DNA of 64,000 bases from an uncultured virus (IMG/VR IMGVR_UViG_3300027659_000012) (Duplodnaviria > Heunggongvirae > Uroviricota > Caudoviricetes). Location of the stretch: the IMG/VR virus record IMGVR_UViG_3300027659_000012. One strand, written 5' to 3'. This document shows, piece after piece, positions 16,530 to 57,716 of the stretch (position 1 is the first letter of the stretch; the number at the start of each line of letters is the position of its first letter). Made by a program: the position numbers and the translations under genes. The notes beneath the pieces were generated by a model. It had not been told where the DNA came from, did not search any database, and saw only the letters and a list, made by a program, of their open reading frames with translations.

Positions 16530-16620
16530 TGGCGGGCAGTGTAGGATTTGAACCCACGGAGAGCTCATCGCCCTCTTCCGTTTTCAAGACGGACGCCTTA
16601 GACCACTCAGCCAACTGCCC
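16530..16620 (-). tRNA. tRNA-Ser(UGA)
   Basis: Cloverleaf with long variable arm, loop CTTGAAA, GCCA end. Confidence 0.92.
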
Positions 16621-16627
16621 TTAAAAT

Positions 16628-16759
16628 TTATCTGCGACCTTGGCCGCGATTTGGTTTCTTGTAGTTCTTCGAACCCTTTAGTCTCGAGGTCTTGCTTTTT
16701 GCATGGACTCCTGGACGCTTTGTGCTCTTGACTTGATCTTTCTTGATTCCATTTTTCAT
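16628..16759 (-). CDS. Small basic T4-like protein
   Basis: Hand translation: MKNGIKKDQVKSTKRPGVHAKSKTSRLKGSKNYKKPNRGQGRR. Confidence 0.55.
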   Translation of the reverse strand: MKNGIKKDQVKSTKRPGVHAKSKTSRLKGSKNYKKPNRGQGRR

Positions 16760-16771
16760 ATGATGTATTTA

Positions 16772-17044
16772 TCAGCACTCCACTACCACGAAATAGCGAT
16801 CGTCGGCGATATGAATCACTGTCTCGTTGCTCGATTCGCCAAATTCACCCTTCTTGACCTCTTCACCCGAGAGTGTGTACAAGAAATGATTTGGCAAGGA
16901 GTATCGGAGAAATCCTCCTGCATCCAGTTCAAGCGATGATTCACCAAGGATTTTTTGCCAATCTTTGATATCGGCATCCATCGCCTCAAAGGCAAGTGAG
17001 AGTGCAGTCAAGAATTTATCCAGTTGTTGGTCGGTGTCGTTCAT
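16772..17044 (-). CDS. Hypothetical protein
   Basis: Tightly packed ORF. Confidence 0.55.
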   Translation of the reverse strand: MNDTDQQLDKFLTALSLAFEAMDADIKDWQKILGESSLELDAGGFLRYSLPNHFLYTLSGEEVKKGEFGESSNETVIHIADDRYFVVVEC

Positions 17045-17388
17045 AGTTTTAGGTCGGTGTATTGGTAGTTTTGTGTGATGTGATGTTCCAGTCGTTTGAG
17101 AGCTCCCTTGTTGAATCGATCAGCCGGACATTCCAGAGCAATATAGGAATCGATGTCAAAGCGAATCAGGCCATCAACATTCAAGATCATGAACATTGGC
17201 ATATACTTCTGGGCATTCATGGCTTTAACGATTCGATTCTTACTAGGAATCTCAAGGATGCCAAAGTAGACTTCCTTATGATCTTCATCCCAATGTACGG
17301 TAGCTTTCTTTTCGAGAAGAAAATCAAACTTATCGGCGAAGTCCTTCAATTGAGAAGTGAGCTGAGTGATGTATTGTTTCTTAGTCAT
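17041..17388 (-). CDS. Hypothetical protein
   Basis: Likely start MTKKQY. Confidence 0.55.
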   Translation of the reverse strand: MTKKQYITQLTSQLKDFADKFDFLLEKKATVHWDEDHKEVYFGILEIPSKNRIVKAMNAQKYMPMFMILNVDGLIRFDIDSYIALECPADRFNKGALKRLEHHITQNYQYTDLKL

Positions 17389-17392
17389 GGTA

Positions 17393-17614
17393 TTAAGAGT
17401 TGAGGGCAGAATGGGTATCATCAACAATGAACTCCGTGATTGAGTAGTCATCATACGCTTGAAGGTTGTAACGATTATTGATGCGATCGACAGCAATCTC
17501 GACCTTGCGCTCCTCAAGTGTGAACACTGCCTTGTCATAAGAGGAGAAAACACCAAGCACTTCACCACCTTCATAGTGAGTGATGCCAAAGAGAAGGAAC
17601 ATTGTAGATTTCAT
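17393..17614 (-). CDS. Hypothetical protein
   Basis: YEG.EVLGVFSS..KA motif common in small phage proteins. Confidence 0.55.
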   Translation of the reverse strand: MKSTMFLLFGITHYEGGEVLGVFSSYDKAVFTLEERKVEIAVDRINNRYNLQAYDDYSITEFIVDDTHSALNS

Positions 17615-18002
17615 AATATCGATGAGTTGTTTAGTTTAGCGAATGATTTGTTCTTCGAGTTGTTTGACGCGCTTGAGTAAGCGATCATAGTCGGCTTTCG
17701 CAACAAACAGTTTGTACATCGACGTACCAACAGAGGAGGTCGTAGGAATCCAAAATTTGTGAATAAGCGTTTTAGTCTTCATAATATAGAGAGGATTAGG
17801 ATTAGCCTTGGACGCGGCTAGCACCGACAACATGGGCACAAGCGAGGGTAACAGTCACACCGGACTTGACGGTGACATTCAGATAGAGGTTGACGGCCTT
17901 TTGGCGATCGCTGCCGCGATAGATTTCCATAGTGCCAGCGGTTACGATGAAGGGGAATTTTGCTTTTGTCATAATGTAGTGGGTAGTCTCAGTTACAAGG
18001 GT

Positions 18003-18030
18003 ATCCTACCATAAAGGGGGCCAAAGTACA
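18003..18030 (-). promoter_or_regulatory. Early-type promoter
   Basis: TGTACT-N16-TAGGAT. Confidence 0.7.
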
Positions 18031-18079
18031 CAACTTTTTACATCAAAAGCGAAAATACTTTGGCCCCGCTGATTATCAA

Positions 18080-18472
18080 TCACTTATGAACGATGACCTT
18101 CATGTAGGCAGGCAGCCTATTGGCGTAAACCTGAACTTCTCGATCATTCTTCACATAGACGTCGAACACGTATGCTCTGCCGCGAGCAGCCTTTTTGCTC
18201 GTCACTGCTGATCCTCGATCTTGTACAACGAATTCTCCGTTGCTATCGAGTTTGCCCTTCAACGCGGGTATTGTAACCTTCGTTCCAAATGGGAACTTTG
18301 GATGTGCCGCGAGTGTGACGCCTTTTACGGCACGTTTGGTTTTCGAGTCAGCGACCCTGCCTGAGCCATCACGATAATAGGTGATGCGTGCCCAGTACGT
18401 TTCTTCCTTTGCAGACCCTAGCGTTGTGCATATGCTTAAGGCCAACATTGTCAATAGGAATATGTTTTTCAT
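18080..18472 (-). CDS. Secreted 3D-domain (MltA/RlpA-like) cell-wall protein
   Basis: Signal peptide; ARITYY..LAAHPKFPFGTKV..VQDRGSAV..FDVYV. Confidence 0.75.
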   Translation of the reverse strand: MKNIFLLTMLALSICTTLGSAKEETYWARITYYRDGSGRVADSKTKRAVKGVTLAAHPKFPFGTKVTIPALKGKLDSNGEFVVQDRGSAVTSKKAARGRAYVFDVYVKNDREVQVYANRLPAYMKVIVHK

Positions 18473-18535
18473 ATTTTCTCGTTTCTTGTTGGTTTCAGTA
18501 TATTGCAGCATCCGTTTGATACCGCGATATGAGAA

Positions 18536-18615
18536 TGGTAGTCCCGGTGGGGGCTTGAACCCACGACCTCGCACTTATAAGGCACGCGCTCTGACCACGA
18601 CTGAGCTACGGGACA
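18536..18615 (-). tRNA. tRNA-Ile(UAU)
   Basis: Cloverleaf, anticodon loop CTTATAA, ACCA end. Confidence 0.85.
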
Positions 18616-18622
18616 ATTAAAA

Positions 18623-18697
18623 TGGAGCCTCCTATCCGATTCGAACGGATGACCTACAAATTACAAATTTGTTGCACTACCACTGTGCTAAGGAGGC
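18623..18697 (-). tRNA. tRNA-Thr(UGU)
   Basis: Cloverleaf, loop TTTGTAA, CCA. Confidence 0.92.
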
Positions 18698-18699
18698 GA

Positions 18700-18774
18700 T
18701 GGCTCCGACTCGTGGGATCGAACCACGGACCCGATGATTAACAGTCATCTGCTCTGCCGCTGAGCTAAGTCGGA
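18700..18774 (-). tRNA. tRNA-Asn(GUU)
   Basis: Cloverleaf, loop CTGTTAA, GCCA. Confidence 0.93.
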
Positions 18775-18806
18775 TTTATCACTTACATTATTATATATAA
18801 GAAAGA

Positions 18807-19004
18807 TTTTTGAACAGGTGAGTCGCTACTCTCACTTCTTACATTTTTAAATAGGACCAAAGATTCAATGGCCATCACACCATGTCTACATCTTCTACCA
18901 TGCATCACTGCATTGTTACCGTTTGGAGACCAACTTAAGGGTGATACCCTTACAAGCTGTAAGCTGCCTCGTCTCAACCTGATGCTCAGGTCTCTGTTCA
19001 AAAA
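18807..19004 (-). ncRNA. Candidate structured ncRNA A
   Basis: Closing stem TTTTTGAACAG/CTGTTCAAAAA and several internal hairpins; strand inferred from flanking tRNAs. Confidence 0.5.
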
Positions 19005-19006
19005 GG

Positions 19007-19173
19007 TTTCTATCGCCGAAGAAGTCCCCCGTTTCCACAGAGGCTAAGTGATCCTTCTTCGCTTTTCTACAAGTACTAGCTCGCTGGAGAGCTTGACCGC
19101 GCGCGGCGTGGCTACACTCATTTTCCGGTCTGTTTTCTCTGAATAGTTCGGGCGATCAAACTCACGATAGAAA
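19007..19173 (-). ncRNA. Candidate structured ncRNA B
   Basis: Closing stem TTTCTATCG/CGATAGAAA, internal hairpins, no ORF. Confidence 0.5.
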
Positions 19174-19208
19174 AATTGTTGCGCTTATTTTACTAAACTT
19201 AAAAATTG

Positions 19209-19216
19209 TATAAATA
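19209..19216 (+). promoter_or_regulatory. T4 late promoter TATAAATA
   Basis: Exact motif just before the ATG at 19225. Confidence 0.75.
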
Positions 19217-19224
19217 CTATTACT

Positions 19225-19557
19225 ATGACAAATTACGATTCAAGAGACCCTTTAGTTGAAGCTGCTCGCCAGTTTCTTTTGGCAGAAGAACAAATGATTA
19301 AGGTTTACGTGAATTTTGAATTCGCGATGTATGACGATGATGCTAAAACTGAAAGAGCAGCAAAAAAGACTCAGGTTTTAATCAAAAAAATCGCCGCAGA
19401 TCACGGATTTACAGTAGTTGATACAGATGAAAATCTAGGAGGTGCTGAAATTGAGGCAACATTTTCTGGTCCAAAAAACAAAATCATAAGTTGGTTACGT
19501 TCTCGCAGCGGAGATAAAAAATCGTCTGATGATCAACTGCTTAAAAAATACAGCTAA
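19225..19557 (+). CDS. Late protein, possibly an internal head protein
   Basis: Late promoter; N-terminal segment ending LLAEE resembles prohead-protease-cleaved leaders. Confidence 0.6.
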   Translation: MTNYDSRDPLVEAARQFLLAEEQMIKVYVNFEFAMYDDDAKTERAAKKTQVLIKKIAADHGFTVVDTDENLGGAEIEATFSGPKNKIISWLRSRSGDKKSSDDQLLKKYS

Positions 19558-19566
19558 AGAAGGGGA

Positions 19567-19719
19567 TTTATCTGTCAGACCTTTAATTGTGCATGCCCCT
19601 CACGCACGCACGACATCTTCGCTGAATCACGGAAGGGCCGTTGTGTAGTAGCAATGCTACCTCAGACGAATCATCAGCTAGGTCTTCACAGTCGCGTGTA
19701 GATATTCTCGACAGATAAA
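19567..19719 (-). ncRNA. Candidate structured ncRNA C
   Basis: 10-bp closing stem TTTATCTGTC/GACAGATAAA and inner AGACCT/AGGTCT stem. Confidence 0.5.
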
Positions 19720-19723
19720 AGGA

Positions 19724-20338
19724 TAGAATGACTGAGATGTCCAGCCTAGGACTCTCAAATAGCGGTCTTCATGAAAGGCATGCCCTCAGTCATTCAGTTT
19801 GTCCATAGGGTGTGCATCCCATCGCCTTAAGCAGGACTGGCTCTACCTAGTACTATAACCATTGCCATAGGTGGCTTCTTTGCTATGCATTCCTATTCGC
19901 CAAGGAAGCAAAGAACGGTCAGACGAAAGTGAACCAACTGCTTGACATGACGCACACTACTTTATCAGGTATAGCCGCCATCAGTCAAGCAATTGGAGTT
20001 TTGTCCATGGCATCATTCGATGCTTACGTTCACGCAGGACTGGCACTAGCTAATGGTTAGCCCACATTAGTCAGGGTCCATAGAGTATTCACTCTTCGAT
20101 TCGAGCAGGACTGGCTCTAGCTACGGACATCCTCATAGCGGGATTTCTACAATGTGTGGTTATTGACCCACACGGAATTTCAAGCCTGTACGCACTCCGA
20201 ATGCGCCTAACTCACCGATTTCCATTGCAAAAATAATCTCTACCGTTAAACCGACTTTCACTGGTCACGAATTCTTCGCAAATTAAATTTGCTTCACTGG
20301 TAGAGTCGCCGATGCATCGTAATCGAATACATTAGCAA
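19724..20338 (-). ncRNA. Candidate large structured ncRNA(s) with a three-fold repeated module
   Basis: No ORF; long hairpins; plus-strand GTCCAT...GCAGGACTGGCWCTA at 19801-19845, 20003-20048 and 20076-20119. Confidence 0.55.
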
Positions 20339-20341
20339 AAT

Positions 20342-20410
20342 TGGTGGACACCGGGGAATCGAACCCCGTCCGCGATGCCGAAACATCACGTCGAACTCCT
20401 ATGAGTGCCC
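20342..20410 (-). ncRNA. Minimal tmRNA-like RNA (tRNA-like domain only)
   Basis: GGGCACT-CATAGGAGTTCGAC-GTGATG-TTTCGG-CATCGC-GGAC-GGGGTTCGATTCCCC-GGTGTCC-ACCA; G3-U70, no D stem, no anticodon loop. Confidence 0.75.
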
Positions 20411-20419
20411 ATATAAAAT

Positions 20420-20494
20420 TGGCGGGCAGGCAGGAATCTAACCTACGATCTTTAGCCTATGGGGCTAACGCTTTATACACTAAGCTACTGCTCC
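20420..20494 (-). tRNA. Atypical or pseudo tRNA with CAU anticodon
   Basis: Cloverleaf, but C33 in loop CCCATAG, T-loop TTAGATT and an imperfect acceptor stem. Confidence 0.55.
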
Positions 20495-20501
20495 GATGAA
20501 A

Positions 20502-20587
20502 TGGTGGGTAGAGATGGATTCGAACCAACGTAAGCTTACGCTAGCAGATTTACAGTCTGCCCCCTTTAGCCGCTCGGGCATCTACCC
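20502..20587 (-). tRNA. tRNA-Tyr(GUA)
   Basis: Long variable arm, loop CTGTAAA, ACCA. Confidence 0.93.
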
Positions 20588-20595
20588 ACATGAAT

Positions 20596-20671
20596 TGGTT
20601 GCGGAAGTTGGGACTCGAACCCACGTAACATGCTTATGAGACACGTATCTGAACCACTCGATTATTCCGCG
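20596..20671 (-). tRNA. tRNA-Met(CAU) with initiator-like acceptor stem
   Basis: Loop CTCATAA; C1-A72 mismatch; ACCA. Confidence 0.75.
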
Positions 20672-20783
20672 TTTGAAAATTTAGAGAGCTTTAACAGGCA
20701 TACATACCATGCAAATCCGAGGACGTGAACTTAATCACCGCATGTGCATCGCCACTCTCCGTGAGTCCGGTTGCAAATTGAAT

Positions 20784-20895
20784 GCTCATTTAATGGTAGG
20801 CGTTGTCGCGTTCAAATCTCTACCCGCATAGAGCAGTTCAAGATCCTCCTTCGCTTACCGCACAGGGCATGAAGCCCTTTGTCCCATTAAAGAGC
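20784..20895 (-). ncRNA. Candidate structured ncRNA D
   Basis: Closing stem GCTCTTTAATGG/CCATTAAA(T)GAGC and internal hairpins. Confidence 0.4.
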
Positions 20896-21005
20896 AAAGT
20901 TTTTAAGAAATTCAGGTTATGTCAAAGACTATCTTTACAACCAAGACTTGGTCTCAGAGGAATTGAAGGTGCCGTCGTGAAGAGCAGCTCAATCAATCAT
21001 GGTGT

Positions 21006-21034
21006 ATTCTACCTTATTTTGAAGGCTTTGTACA
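21006..21034 (-). promoter_or_regulatory. Early-type promoter upstream of the tRNA/ncRNA cluster
   Basis: TGTACA-N17-TAGAAT followed by non-coding sequence. Confidence 0.65.
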
Positions 21035-21046
21035 CCTAATTTTTAC

Positions 21047-21172
21047 TTATTCTTCGCTTTCGACCGGAGACTCAAGAGGAGCTTCCGCTACTTGAGTTTC
21101 GGCCGCAATCGCAGCATCTCGAAGCATTTGTTCATATGCGCGAGATGAGTCAGATGGAGCTAGGTTGTTCAT
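21047..21172 (-). CDS. Small acidic late peptide (41 aa)
   Basis: TATAAATA at 21182-21189; MNNLAPSDSSRAYEQMLRD...ESEE. Confidence 0.5.
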   Translation of the reverse strand: MNNLAPSDSSRAYEQMLRDAAIAAETQVAEAPLESPVESEE

Positions 21173-21192
21173 AGTAAATTTTATTTATAAAG

Positions 21193-21270
21193 TGGTAGGG
21201 GCGCTCGGATTCGAACCGAGGATCCTTCGTTTATGAGACGAACGCTTTAAGACCACTAAGCTACACCCCT
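21193..21270 (-). tRNA. tRNA-Met or Ile2 (CAU)
   Basis: Cloverleaf, loop CTCATAA, ACCA. Confidence 0.88.
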
Positions 21271-21285
21271 TTTTGTTTTTGAAAT

Positions 21286-21368
21286 TGGTAGCCGTGGTCG
21301 GACTCGAACCGACAAGCTTGCGCGGCAGATTTTAAATCTGCTGAGTTTACCGATTTCTCCACACGGCC
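21286..21368 (-). tRNA. tRNA-Leu(UAA)
   Basis: Long variable arm, loop TTTAAAA, ACCA. Confidence 0.9.
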
Positions 21369-22195: not shown

Positions 22196-22837
22196 TCACT
22201 CGTCCCCATCAACGGCTTGCGCGCCCTTCTTCTTGGCTTCTGCGGCAAGCTTTTTCTTTACCACGACGTCACGCTTCTTCAATCGGGCTATAACCTCATC
22301 CGAATCCATCCAGAGGTCCTTGTTATTGAGCAGTGCCTGAATCTCTGCCTTAGTCAAGAAATCCGAATAGACATCAGTCAGCAACTTCTCTGACCATTTA
22401 CGTTCATGAACCAGATTGTCGTACATCTCTCCGCCTTTGCCAAAGGAACCGCCCGAATAGTTGTGGAACATGAACATCGAGTGAGGCGCGATCTGAAACT
22501 CATCAGCAGCCAAGAAGAGCATGGTTGCCGCACTCATGCAGATACCTTCTACGCTGGCAATGATGTGAGCCTCGGTCTCGGCCAGAGCCTGGAGAAACTG
22601 GATCGTCGTAAAGAGGTTTCCACCCGGGGAATTGATGTGAATCTTAATCGCATCCGAATTACGAGTATTGCGAATCTCCTGAAACCAATCAGTGTATTCG
22701 CTGGCCTCGCCAATTTCATCCGAGACATAGTACTCGTAGAACTTTCCGTATTCGTTTGAATAGGACTTGCTGTCTGCGGCTTTAAGGAGTTCGGCGAGTC
22801 CGTTAGAGCTTTTACGATTTTTTTTGTTAGAATGCAT
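22196..22837 (-). CDS. ClpP-like protease
   Basis: IHINSPGG, CMSAATML, FMFHN, DLWM motifs. Confidence 0.85.
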   Translation of the reverse strand: MHSNKKNRKSSNGLAELLKAADSKSYSNEYGKFYEYYVSDEIGEASEYTDWFQEIRNTRNSDAIKIHINSPGGNLFTTIQFLQALAETEAHIIASVEGICMSAATMLFLAADEFQIAPHSMFMFHNYSGGSFGKGGEMYDNLVHERKWSEKLLTDVYSDFLTKAEIQALLNNKDLWMDSDEVIARLKKRDVVVKKKLAAEAKKKGAQAVDGDE

Positions 22838-23567
22838 GGCCGAATAGTTTTTGTTTGTTATAGAATTGAATAGCTTCATCGAGTCCCTTGGTCCATTTAT
22901 CACGGTGTTGTTGAAAGATTATAGGATTTGGATCATTATCGACGACCATGATGGTGATCAGATTGACGATAGGAATGCCTGTACGCTCCTCAAACATTAT
23001 TGTATAAGCTGCTTCTTGCATGAAGTAGTTCTCGATGTGTTGCTCGCTCTTGATGCGTGAACTGGTCTTGAAGTCAATCACACTCAGGCGACCATCAAAT
23101 TCAGCGATCAGGTCTACGCGTCCGGCAATGCCGAGATGATCACTATAGAGTGGGCATTCCTGAAGGACGACTTTACCGATTCGCTCATCGAGAACCTTTT
23201 GCACCGTCTTGAAGCTTTGAATAACGTGAGGCATCTCATCCTCGGCAAAGATCTCTTCTTCGTTGTTCAGATACTTCTCGGCCAGCAAATGCAATGCGGT
23301 GCCACGAGAACATGCATGACGAGTGATTCGATTCGCCTCCTCTTCGCCTACTCGCTTGCGCCATTCAATGATTGCCTCTTTACCTCTGGCTCCTAGCACT
23401 GTGGTGATCGAGGGATATTTCTTACCAGTCGGAGTAAGATAGGTCCTACCTTTTGCCGAGCTTTCGTCGGAGAGGTCTTCATAACCCAGAGAAACTGGCT
23501 CATGAATGAACGTTTTGTTGCGAATGAATGTAGGCTTAGATGCAGATATAATCATAATGAGTCCCAA
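22827..23567 (-). CDS. PD-(D/E)xK exonuclease (Cas4 / exonuclease A-like)
   Basis: YPSITTVL, RGTALH, AGRVDLIAEFDG..IDFKTS, YFMQ..AY. Confidence 0.85.
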   Translation of the reverse strand: MGLIMIISASKPTFIRNKTFIHEPVSLGYEDLSDESSAKGRTYLTPTGKKYPSITTVLGARGKEAIIEWRKRVGEEEANRITRHACSRGTALHLLAEKYLNNEEEIFAEDEMPHVIQSFKTVQKVLDERIGKVVLQECPLYSDHLGIAGRVDLIAEFDGRLSVIDFKTSSRIKSEQHIENYFMQEAAYTIMFEERTGIPIVNLITIMVVDNDPNPIIFQQHRDKWTKGLDEAIQFYNKQKLFGHAF

Positions 23568-26995: not shown

Positions 26996-28651
26996 TTATG
27001 CCTCGCAAGAGGCACAGTTTAGGATCGAGCGAGCGAGCTCTTGTGAAGGGTTAGCGCTGCGTTGATAATACAACGACTTGATTCCTTGTTGCCAGGCAAA
27101 GATCATAAGTTCGTTAACCTCCTTGGGTTTGGTATTAGGAGGAATCATAAGGTTCAGCGATTGTCCTTGATCGATCCACTTCTGACGCTGAGCTGCCTGA
27201 ATGACGATCTCTTTCTGAGAGATTTCGCCGAATGTCTTGAACACATCCTTTTCGTCCTGAGTCAGGAATTCAAGGTGTTGGACAGAACCGCCGTGAGACA
27301 GCACATCTTTCCAGACCTCGAGGTTATCTTGACCTTTGCTCTTAAGAAGTTTGGCAAGATAAGGATTCTTAAAGGTAAACTTACCCTTAGCAAGATCCTT
27401 AGTGAAGTAGTTGCTGTTCAGCGGCTCGATGGAAGGAGAGACCTGACCAAGAATGAATGAACTCGAGGTAGTAGGTGCCACTGCCAGCGTAGTAGAGTTA
27501 CGACGACCATATCCGGCGAGCAATGGAGGTTCACCAAACAATGAAGCGAGCTCAACGGAGGCAGCATCACATTTCTTTCGAAGAGTCGAGAAGACTTCAT
27601 TGTTGAGCATCTTGGCATCCATCGATTCGAATGCGATTTGCTTCAACTGAAGAAGCGAATGCCAACCAAGCACACCGATTCCGATAGCGCGCTGATTGAT
27701 GGCAAACTTTCTCGGCGCATCCATGAACGGAATGTCCTCGGTCTTGTCGACGAATTCAGTGATCACTGCATCCAAGAAACAGTTTAGCGTCTCAATGGCA
27801 TCGGTATCTTTCAATTCGTCCCAACGTTCCAGATTAATCGAGGAAAGGCAGCAAACAAAAGATTCATCGGTCTGATTGCTCAGAAAGATTTCGGTACAAA
27901 GGTTACTATGATTGATCTTGAGACCTTTGTCCTTGTAAACCTGAGGAGCCGCATCATTGGCATTGTCGGTAAAGAAGAGGTATGGATAGCCAGATTCGAA
28001 ACGCTTCTTAATGACTTGACCCCAGATCTTGCGTTTATCTTTATCACCTTCGAGCATGCTTTCCATCCAAGCATTCGTAATCGTGACACCGATCGAAAGA
28101 TCCTGAATCGAGTTGCCTTCACCACGAATCTTTAAGAATTCCTCGATGTCTCCGTGATCGATCGGCAGATAGGCCGCAAAAGAGCCGCGGCGAACATTGC
28201 CTTGCGAGACGACATTCATCAGCTTATCATAGAGTTCCATGAAATGGACAGATCCTGTCGAGGTTCCGCCAGTCGAGATAGGAGTACCGCGTGAACGAAG
28301 AGCCCCGAAATATGCCGAGGTACCACCACCGGATTTGGTCATCATTCCGATCTCGGCAAGCTTATTGCCTACAATCTCCTCGAGACGATCATCGATATAA
28401 GAACCGAAACAAGAAATTGGTAAACCTCTCTCACGACCAAAGTTACTCCAGACCGGAGAAGATAGTGAGAAGAAACCGGCATGCATGTAAGATTCAAACT
28501 TATCTGCAAATCCATCGATCTTCAAATATCGCTCTGCTGCCTCGGCAATATCACGAATTCTTTGTTCCGGGGTTTCTCCTTCAATTAAATACCCACGCTC
28601 TAGGAACTTGCGCGAGTCTTTGTTCAACCAATAAATGTCCTTGTTACTCAT
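26996..28651 (-). CDS. nrdA: Class I ribonucleotide reductase alpha subunit
   Basis: PISC, SNLCTEI, CCLSS, APTTSSS, KSLYY and C-terminal CASCEA; short, no obvious ATP cone. Confidence 0.95.
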   Translation of the reverse strand: MSNKDIYWLNKDSRKFLERGYLIEGETPEQRIRDIAEAAERYLKIDGFADKFESYMHAGFFSLSSPVWSNFGRERGLPISCFGSYIDDRLEEIVGNKLAEIGMMTKSGGGTSAYFGALRSRGTPISTGGTSTGSVHFMELYDKLMNVVSQGNVRRGSFAAYLPIDHGDIEEFLKIRGEGNSIQDLSIGVTITNAWMESMLEGDKDKRKIWGQVIKKRFESGYPYLFFTDNANDAAPQVYKDKGLKINHSNLCTEIFLSNQTDESFVCCLSSINLERWDELKDTDAIETLNCFLDAVITEFVDKTEDIPFMDAPRKFAINQRAIGIGVLGWHSLLQLKQIAFESMDAKMLNNEVFSTLRKKCDAASVELASLFGEPPLLAGYGRRNSTTLAVAPTTSSSFILGQVSPSIEPLNSNYFTKDLAKGKFTFKNPYLAKLLKSKGQDNLEVWKDVLSHGGSVQHLEFLTQDEKDVFKTFGEISQKEIVIQAAQRQKWIDQGQSLNLMIPPNTKPKEVNELMIFAWQQGIKSLYYQRSANPSQELARSILNCASCEA

Positions 28652-57290: not shown

Positions 57291-57716
57291 TTAGTCATTA
57301 ATTGGTTTAAGAACCTCTTTGATGTTCTTGGCACCGTATTGATTGGCCGAATGAATATACGTCCGCATCGGAGGCATACCCGCTTCTTGCCACTTGCGAA
57401 GAATGAATTCCGCACATGATTTGCCAGTCTTCTCACGAAGGTTGCCATACTCGATGACACCGCTAGTGGGTTGAGTCACATCATGATAATGACGAATATG
57501 CTCGAAGTGAAGATCATGATCAAAGGACACGGTGTCAGGAAGCCCATTCTTGTTGATGTAACGAACGAACGAGTCGTAGTTGCGAACGATTTGCCACTGG
57601 TTATTCGCGACACCTGATGCATCGATCAGGTTGATATCCCTATCACTAAGGTATGCGCCATTAGGATAACGCACGTCATCCAAGAATAGGTTATAAGGCT
57701 CGTATGTATTTTCCAT
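57291..57716 (-). CDS. Cyclic-phosphate-processing receiver-like domain protein
   Basis: LFLDDVR.P, VSFDHDL, KTG, IHSAN..GAKNI. Confidence 0.7.
   Translation of the reverse strand: MENTYEPYNLFLDDVRYPNGAYLSDRDINLIDASGVANNQWQIVRNYDSFVRYINKNGLPDTVSFDHDLHFEHIRHYHDVTQPTSGVIEYGNLREKTGKSCAEFILRKWQEAGMPPMRTYIHSANQYGAKNIKEVLKPIND

Follow-up and report, generated by a model that had tools for sequence, protein, structure and literature searches.

Can a phage carry a transfer-messenger RNA (tmRNA) of which only the tRNA-like domain (TLD) is left, and if so, what would such an RNA do in the infected cell? This question is raised by a 69-nt element on the minus strand of a 64,000-nucleotide stretch of DNA from an uncultured virus of the Caudoviricetes (IMG/VR record IMGVR_UViG_3300027659_000012), the whole of which is called the window here. 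An earlier note, made from the sequence alone, had described the element as the TLD of a tmRNA standing by itself, with its gene order not permuted, elements of alanine identity present and the mRNA-like domain missing. Both the sequence and the Rfam tmRNA model RF00023 bear out this description, and every feature listed in the note (the acceptor stem with G3·U70, A73, CCA, UUCGAC, a closed helix, GGAC and the T-arm) is present on the minus strand.

By sequence inspection, the element has a 7-position acceptor stem with G3·U70, A73 and a genome-encoded CCA (Table 1; RNA position n corresponds to window position 20411-n). Its gene order is not permuted, and a short helix 2 stands in the place of the long helix 2, the pseudoknots and the tag open reading frame (ORF) of a full tmRNA. 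The spacing between UUCGAC and GGAC is 18 nt, all in this hairpin, and therefore leaves no room for a tag ORF or pseudoknots. Neither sequence, fold nor ARAGORN revealed an mRNA-like domain with a resume codon and a stop-terminated tag ORF in the element. Pseudoknots and the long helix 2 are likewise absent from it, the alignment to RF00023 deleting 306 of the 374 model positions. The closed helix of the earlier note stood, but its reading as 6 bp with a 6-nt loop is better replaced by 7 bp under a UUCG tetraloop. The minimum-free-energy (MFE) fold from ViennaRNA closes this helix with a U·G pair, and a related phage genome, G012, has G-C at the same place, which backs the 7-bp reading.

RF00023 aligns end to end (positions 1-374) to the element, only interior positions being deleted, with a score of 37.1 bits (E 3.4e-13; 801 nt searched). 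The conserved TLD positions of bacterial tmRNA (SsrA) all align (GGG..., UUCGAC, GGAC, T-loop, UCCACCA), and RF00023 outscores every other tRNA-clan Rfam family at this site, the tRNA model included. The earlier note had named ARAGORN and Rfam as a check on its proposal, and the outcome was divided: Rfam found the tmRNA match, but under the gathering threshold of 47 bits, which the G012 variant (42.1 bits) also does not reach, and ARAGORN, which called 10 tRNAs in the window, called neither a tRNA nor a tmRNA at 20342..20410. R2, a covariance model trained on TLD-only RNAs with the window element left out, gave 40.7 bits (E ~1e-8) for the element, compared with 23.9 bits for the best true tRNA in the window. 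These results confirm that 20342..20410 is a genuine tagless (TLD-only) tmRNA derivative, with a match far beyond chance.

Two other identities were considered and rejected. The RNA has G3·U70, A73, CCA and the T-loop in common with tRNA-Ala, but a degenerate tRNA-Ala is ruled out by UUCGAC and GGAC, which are tmRNA-specific, by the missing D-stem and by a 4-nt loop instead of an anticodon loop. An attP fragment of ssrA is also ruled out, because both TLD halves are present and covary and no integrase lies nearby; none was found in the ORF annotation of the window or among the annotated recurring neighbour gene clusters of related elements. Compared with bacterial tmRNA, the window RNA is without the mRNA-like domain, resume codon, tag ORF and pseudoknots, scores under the gathering threshold, and has a T-stem of 4 bp instead of 5 bp.

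Table 1. Coordinates of the TLD-only element, its parts and the surrounding tRNA island in the window
Feature	Position	Strand	Details	Basis
Whole TLD-only tmRNA-like gene (mini-tmRNA)	20342..20410	minus	69 nt	Sequence, Rfam tmRNA, model R2, G012 covariation, independent DNA contigs
Acceptor stem, 5' strand	20404..20410	minus	nt 1-7, including G3 of G3·U70	G012 pair changes
Stemless D-loop analogue	20390..20403	minus	nt 8-21, GG dinucleotide, 3' end UUCGAC (tmRNA-specific)	RF00023 alignment to conserved TLD positions
Closed helix 2	20372..20389	minus	nt 22-39, 7 bp and UUCG tetraloop	MFE fold, L121, G012
GGAC connector	20368..20371	minus	nt 40-43, tmRNA hallmark 5' of the T-arm	Identical in G012
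T-arm	20353..20367	minus	nt 44-58, 4-bp GGGG/CCCC stem, 7-nt T-loop fitting the UUCRANU consensus	Sequence, fold
Acceptor stem, 3' strand, and 3' end	20342..20352	minus	nt 59-65 (U70 = nt 63), discriminator A nt 66, encoded CCA nt 67-69	Sequence
tRNA island	16530..21368	minus	9 of the window's 10 ARAGORN tRNAs	ARAGORN and Rfam tRNA matches

Is the element a gene under selection? G012 is a related phage genome of 139,990 bp (CheckV 100% complete) with 69-85% identity to the window in matching DNA blocks. It carries a 69-nt element of equal geometry, which differs from that of the window at 19 of 69 positions. Fourteen of the 19 differences form seven double changes in stems, the other five are in loops, and none is one-sided. 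Six of the double changes keep standard pairs, three of them in helix 2 and three in the acceptor stem (pairs 4, 5 and 6, each altered on both strands). The seventh, pair 7:59, is U·G in the window and C·A in G012, an isosteric wobble-type replacement. The D-loop region differs at positions 14 and 15 only, and the T-loop position R57 is G in the window and A in G012. G3·U70, A73, CCA, UUCGAC, GGAC and the 4-bp T-stem are all unchanged.

Three IMG/VR contigs (L121, L122 and L123) also carry the window's element. L122 and L123 are identical within it, and L121 has a single C-to-U change that turns a G-C pair of helix 2 into G·U. When the window is set against L121, identity reaches 98.8% in the block of the element (82 nt), compared with 80.9% for the adjacent three-tRNA block and ~74% for the other tRNAs, and the sequence just downstream is unalignable; the mini-TLD is the most conserved segment of the tRNA island in this comparison. 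The window element is a selected RNA gene, under purifying selection with covariation. The claim of the earlier note that it is a real gene and not an assembly deletion held: an assembly deletion is ruled out by contigs from independent DNA runs that hold the short form, namely a 329-nt contig of run X2 over 20158-20486 with no differences from the window and a contig of run X7 over 20335-20462.

The low score of 37.1 bits, the lowest among the family members described below, and the T-stem that is one pair short might point to a non-functional remnant, such as a decayed tmRNA, a tRNA-Ala pseudogene or an assembly artefact. Seven double changes with no one-sided stem change, the conservation relative to L121, the identical sequence in contigs of independent DNA runs, and the same 69-nt geometry in G012 despite the divergence of the neighbouring DNA make a remnant highly improbable.

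No contig from the RNA runs covers 20342-20410, and contigs of such short RNAs are not expected anyway. Scans for promoters and terminators gave counts no higher than in shuffles. A scan of metagenomes from the window's 5' half returned 24 matches, two of which were the element (one identical, one on the L121 contig), the remaining 22 being chance matches in coding DNA. A generalised scan of IMG/VR for the window subtype found nothing beyond the four contigs already identified.

The location of the element is not fixed. In the window it lies 10 nt downstream of tRNA-Met (20421-20494), whose 3' end and A/U-rich trailer match those of the mini-TLD (repeat D4). In G012 the mini-TLD (C1:15717-15785) adjoins tRNA-Gly, ~5 kb from the syntenic site (C1:21099-21128), where a block of non-coding RNA (ncRNA) runs straight into tRNA-Met without a mini-TLD. 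A second contig of run X7 joins 20336 to 20415 and skips the mini-TLD, a junction explained by a G012-like site that lacks the element. The mini-TLD behaves like a movable cassette in the tRNA island, with polymorphism in both presence and position.

The search of viral contigs for the motif, which the earlier note had suggested, recovered a large family of TLD-only RNAs. The IMG/VR pattern consisted of UUCGAC, a gap of 8-38 nt, GGAC and a T-arm core, and cannot match a full tmRNA. It returned at least 90 unique sequences, and at least 83 distinct family members were kept. Among the 90 unique matches listed, a perfect 7-bp acceptor stem was found in 83, G3·U70 in 86, discriminator A in 89 and an encoded CCA in 28, none of these features being part of the search pattern. 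Seven of the 90 were left out: L008 and L041 were called permuted tmRNAs and L059 a tRNA by ARAGORN, L095 is a close variant of L041, and L098, L105 and L025 have imperfect acceptor stems.

The shared structure was seen in an alignment-free count of 83 sequences, in which positions 1-6 of helix 2 were paired in 92% as against 43.5% in shuffles, and both free T-stem pairs were formed in every sequence (83 of 83), by 4-5 types of base pair. An alignment of 94 sequences had 94.4% of cells paired, compared with 67.9% when shuffled and 45-55% for slid partners, with double changes at 16 of 21 pairs; this alignment was model-guided and thus leans towards the structure. G3·U70 is present in all 94 aligned members. 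Five complete carrier phages, one of them G002 (see below), have mini-TLDs that score 60.4-65.5 bits with RF00023, above threshold. The genomic contexts of the family include tRNA islands, the site between head protease and major capsid genes, sites upstream of DnaB-like helicases, and sites beside replication-initiator, HNH or exonuclease genes.

Within this family, the window element stands at the minimal end. It has the lowest score among the 94 members, and its T-stem is 4 bp as compared with 5 bp in the other 93. A 7-bp acceptor stem with a 5-bp T-stem, making 12 stacked pairs, occurs in all 83 training sequences, from which the window and G012 differ with a stack of 11 levels. The element is also without the usual internal A-rich loop and the apical hairpin of the CCGCAYGCGG type found in family helix 2. 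Both are missing from the short members L078, L093 and L113 as well, and the internal loop and apical hairpin are not defining for the whole family because several short members lack them.

A looser pattern was used for bacterial genomes and gave at least 119 parsed matches. Among the 119 listed, 24 are true mini-TLDs and 95 are not, most of the latter looking by sequence like 3' regions of ordinary full tmRNAs. Of the 24 bacterial mini-TLDs listed, 14 belong to one type of ~84 nt, and the eight titled members of this type are all cyanobacterial, mostly Nostocales (L144, L153, L157, L166, L169, L176, L185, L188); four others are in Poribacteria (L131, L136, L152, L201). TLD-only RNAs form a large, hitherto unreported family, spread over several phage lineages that are not related to one another and over some genomes of bacteria.

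The cyanobacterial and Poribacteria mini-TLDs, ~84-86 nt long, are conserved, with a perfect acceptor stem and G3·U70. The cyanobacterial mini-TLD is followed by conserved same-strand genes for proteins of ~69, 240 and up to 486 aa, which belong to no Pfam family above threshold, the largest having weak sub-threshold vWA matches.

The novelty of these RNAs has to be seen against prior reports. The earlier note knew of no characterised phage example; that part did not survive, as the entry "Mycobacterium phage DS6A (TLD only)" was listed by Hudson, Lau and Williams in 2014. Nor is the idea of an SmpB decoy new, since the same titration of SmpB is already in Hudson et al. 2014, which reports, citing Mao et al. 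2009, strong inhibition of tmRNA by a similar molecule, whether it can be charged or not, and names titration of SmpB as a possible cause. The 2025 tmRNA database paper gives forms without a coding sequence (CDS) in jakobid mitochondria, two plastids and DS6A, and also natural tmRNAs with Ala-Ala-only tags. Full-length tmRNAs are already known from phages. The full-text literature covered, with subscription journals outside it, contained no other paper on a TLD-only phage tmRNA. The tagless kind and the decoy idea were thus already known from one phage, and the large family and the minimal variant are new.

Our family model located the DS6A element at 28478-28560 (JN698994; L125), between gp33 and gp34, where it is unannotated in all three DS6A records; blastn with it finds those 3 records only. 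Model R2 gives it 57.2 bits. Like the window RNA, it is phage-encoded and non-permuted, lacks a tag ORF, and combines a G3·U70 acceptor and a T-arm with a D-loop of the UUCGAC type and a helix 2 that is closed. In DS6A, as in most of the family, the T-stem has 5 bp and helix 2 is ~30 nt long, with an internal loop and the conserved apical CCGCAYGCGG hairpin, whereas the window has a 4-bp T-stem and the 7-bp helix 2 capped by UUCG. DS6A is a temperate siphovirus; the window is from a T4-like phage, whose element encodes its CCA and lies within a tRNA island. The window form is the most minimal member of the family, a more minimal variant than DS6A. In searches against named phages, blastn with short queries (the elements of the window and of L003, and the ncRNA region) gave no match, blastn with the L002 element gave 3 partial matches, and megablast with the 3 kb island gave solely a 79-nt tRNA match to BcepSauron.

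Two other systems resemble the window RNA. Tagless tmRNAs of organelles (jakobid mitochondria, and Mallomonadaceae plastids with ~65 bp) consist of the TLD only, are of similar size and have no tag frame or pseudoknots. However, they descend from the resident tmRNA and are the only tmRNA of their compartment, some of them in two pieces, whereas the phage RNA would be an extra copy alongside an intact host tmRNA. The TLD crystallised with SmpB (PDB 2CZJ), as given in the Himeno review, joins the 5' 25 nt and the 3' 34 nt by UUCG, and the window RNA has the same design. This RNA and the inhibitor of Mao et al. 2009 were made in the laboratory from bacterial tmRNAs and have the normal 5-bp T-stem. 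The engineered TLD-only inhibitor blocks tmRNA in E. coli (Mao et al. 2009, as cited by Hudson 2014).

What could such an RNA do? According to reviews, G3·U70 is the determinant for alanyl-tRNA synthetase (AlaRS) (Himeno review); SmpB, bound to the TLD, stands in for the lower half of a tRNA, which the TLD lacks; and the peptide is passed to Ala-TLD·SmpB·EF-Tu after this complex has moved into the vacant A site, a template being needed only afterwards. We infer processing, charging, SmpB binding, ribosome entry and a benefit to the phage as follows. The mini-TLD would be expressed and processed like the surrounding tRNAs, RNase P and 3' processing releasing a 69-nt RNA that ends in ACCA. Host AlaRS would add alanine via G3·U70 and A73, and the D-loop/T-loop elbow and the GGAC region would bind host SmpB. 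The resulting Ala-RNA·SmpB·EF-Tu would vie with host tmRNA both for SmpB and for non-stop ribosomes whose A site is empty. As the RNA has neither a resume codon nor a tag ORF, the nascent chain would gain no degradation tag and no more than the charged alanine. As a net result, host SsrA tagging, and probably all host trans-translation, would be suppressed during infection. We give a probability of about 0.42 to this interpretation, in which the element is a functional TLD-only tmRNA derivative and, charged with alanine, a competitor of host tmRNA for SmpB and stalled ribosomes.

SmpB must be supplied by the host, because no PF01668 was found in the carriers or in the window ORFs: there is none among the ORFs of the window (79 scanned with Pfam, 39 with PHROGs), and a six-frame search for PF01668 gave 0 matches in 11 carrier records, seven of them with a completeness of 90% or more. 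This also fits a passive sponge, which would sequester host SmpB so that charging and ribosome entry would be irrelevant. The similar molecule of Hudson 2014 that inhibits tmRNA chargeable or not, perhaps by titrating SmpB, is what such a sponge would look like, and to a sponge a stack of 11 levels would matter little. But a sponge needs no alanine identity, and yet the family as a whole retains G3·U70, A73 and a perfect acceptor, an identity that has also survived three compensatory changes in the acceptor between the window and G012. That the AlaRS determinants are so strictly conserved suggests that charging is under selection. Since alanine identity is conserved, a ribosome-entering competitor or a tag-free rescue RNA is favoured over the passive sponge, which we regard as unlikely.

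The second of these, productive rescue without a tag and the chief rival of the competitor reading, would have the charged RNA and host SmpB accept the peptide, with release by drop-off with Pth or an ArfB-type factor. The benefit would be fast ribosome recycling, phage proteins unmarked for proteolysis and more free ribosomes. The conserved AlaRS determinants, acceptor stem and CCA end (G3·U70 in 94/94 aligned members, discriminator A in 89/90 of the matches listed) suit this reading as well, and in the reviews trans-translation through peptidyl transfer requires just Ala-TLD, SmpB and EF-Tu. A further observation bearing on it is from G002, the complete 123.6 kb phage genome of the IMG/VR record behind L010. 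G002 has a full tmRNA of 392 nt (94.2 bits; L326 1501-1892), whose tag as predicted by ARAGORN is unusual and does not end in AA, and 31 kb away a mini-TLD (65.1 bits; L331 ~1501-1582). The T-stem is the same in the two RNAs, and the acceptor stems are set apart by a compensatory double change, which shows that both RNAs are maintained. Their coexistence fits added rescue capacity better than an inhibitor. Jakobid tagless tmRNAs co-occur with SmpB and are thought helpful for incomplete mRNAs (2025 tmRNA database paper). Because a full tmRNA coexists in G002 and there are organellar precedents, tag-free rescue is favoured; because the similar molecule is reported as inhibitory, net inhibition of host tagging is favoured. 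The sole experiment reported on a similar molecule, inhibition as given in Hudson 2014, thus speaks against rescue, as does the lack of any known release route for a peptidyl-TLD without a stop codon on a template. According to the Himeno review, the tagless mitochondrial forms argue against a capacity for bacterial-type trans-translation, and the short T-stem of the window subtype may hinder ribosome function. We consider tag-free rescue somewhat doubtful, with a modest chance of being right.

Several of these observations weigh against the alanine-charged competitor too. The inhibition in Hudson 2014, being independent of chargeability, is explained by a simple sponge without ribosome entry. 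In G002, a general inhibitor would harm the phage's own tmRNA. In jakobid mitochondria, a tagless tmRNA with SmpB is the only form and is read as helpful in the 2025 tmRNA database paper. The stack of 11 levels instead of 12, the same in G012, would matter least for SmpB binding, but may impair the use by EF-Tu or the ribosome or the choice of the RNase P site, and may alter how far the RNA reaches towards the peptidyl-transferase centre. Finally, the literature covered held no experiment on a natural phage TLD-only RNA.

Phage tRNA islands often counter host attacks on tRNAs, and a role outside rescue could be sought in the same direction. The RNA could be a decoy or a substrate for nucleases directed at tRNA or tmRNA or for SmpB-like defence sensors, could modulate RNase R via SmpB, or could give its alanine to a transferase outside the ribosome. 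CoCoNuT defence systems include SmpB-like domains for which binding of tmRNA-like RNA is predicted (eLife 2024), and SmpB and tmRNA regulate RNase R (AcrIIIA1 paper). Against such roles, the gene neighbourhoods give no signal, the contexts being diverse, and the conserved features are exactly those of a translation-competent TLD. Taken together, we judge these options quite unlikely.

The window is from a distant T4-like phage of freshwater origin with gp59, the late-transcription coactivator gp33 and a baseplate protein, and its gp43 polymerase is ~51% identical to cyanomyovirus polymerases. A ClpP-family protease gene (PF00574, 41.4 bits, cutoff 20.2) lies at 22196-22903 on the minus strand, 1.8 kb upstream of the mini-TLD. 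Among 80 relatives with this ClpP-like gene, one, the near-twin of the window, has the mini-TLD, and three (L260, L262 and L279) have full two-piece tmRNAs with ...ALAA-type tags according to ARAGORN, within ~0.5 kb upstream of the ClpP-like gene in L260 and L262. From this arrangement, phage tmRNA and phage Clp protease may be a functional pairing. The two-piece tmRNAs occupy the same neighbourhood as the window mini-TLD, a tRNA island beside the ClpP-like gene, but unlike the window RNA they are permuted, encode tags (...ALAA) and have another acceptor stem. The mini-TLD as a deletion product of these tmRNAs is ruled out; there is no origin by simple deletion because the gene order there is permuted and the acceptor stem differs.

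We also considered template-free alanine tailing, in which successive Ala-TLD·SmpB would add a C-terminal Ala tail that would act as a minimal Clp degron. Without a template, the A site would be vacant once more when peptidyl-Ala-TLD·SmpB has translocated. Such a process would amount to a phage-encoded counterpart of RqcH-type Ala tailing that works with RNA alone. The ClpP-family gene 1.8 kb upstream, the ...ALAA tmRNAs beside it in relatives and the existence of Ala-Ala-only tags are compatible with the idea, which we hold to be very unlikely.

The earlier note had further suggested that the RNA works together with neighbouring ncRNAs. Just downstream of the mini-TLD, approximately 19795-20340 on the minus strand is non-coding and contains three copies of a motif (GCCAGTCCTGC, a variable hairpin and ATGGAC) as against 0 expected by chance. 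The block has no Rfam match; it is kept in L121, where the hairpin shows compensatory changes, and G012 has it at 82% identity. In the metatranscriptome run X15, a 329-nt contig with a depth of 179.8 covers 19939-20194 and ends in Illumina adapter. The block is probably an abundant structured phage RNA of unassigned kind. A viral scan for its motif gave 88 matches, about the chance level by our own rough estimate, and only multi-copy loci and contigs already known as related were used. Three relatives with the motif have no mini-TLD within ~7 kb either side of the ClpP-like gene, and in G012 the two are ~5 kb apart. Since mini-TLD and ncRNA block are separable in relatives, a partnership finds no support, contrary to the suggestion.

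Several tRNA-like sequences were seen on the side. In Synechococcus phage S-CRM01 (HQ615693; L124 1171-1237), an unannotated gap right after the annotated tRNA-Leu holds a tmRNA-like 3' half (GGAC, T-arm, acceptor 3' strand), to which the mini-TLD model gives 31.7 bits with a poor 5' half; from its sequence it may be the acceptor piece of a two-piece tmRNA. The TLD model has weak tRNA-like matches of 19-21.5 bits at L121 3354-3429 and L122 676-751, where ARAGORN is silent, and in L121 extra inserts with T-arm-like sequence lie between the ncRNA block and the mini-TLD. All of these may be additional tRNA-like genes of an unconventional kind. Elsewhere in the window, the ORF 57291-57716 on the minus strand encodes a cREC_REC domain, a receiver domain for cyclic-phosphate processing (PF20274; 59.9 bits). 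Its link to RNA-repair systems is noteworthy in a phage with so large an investment in tRNA-like RNAs.

Within the literature covered, TLD-only phage tmRNAs rested on DS6A alone; there is now a large family with invariant alanine identity, which makes decoy versus tag-free rescue directly testable. Annotation systematically misses mini-TLDs: ARAGORN is blind to them, Rfam scores are near or below threshold, and the element of DS6A is itself unannotated. Bacteria rescue their ribosomes mainly by trans-translation, which is also a drug target. Stripped-down TLD copies are common in phages and probably compete with the rescue-and-tagging system of the host. If they do, phages would manipulate trans-translation with an RNA of ~70 nt alone, and the mini-TLDs would be ready-made inhibitors or probes of this pathway.

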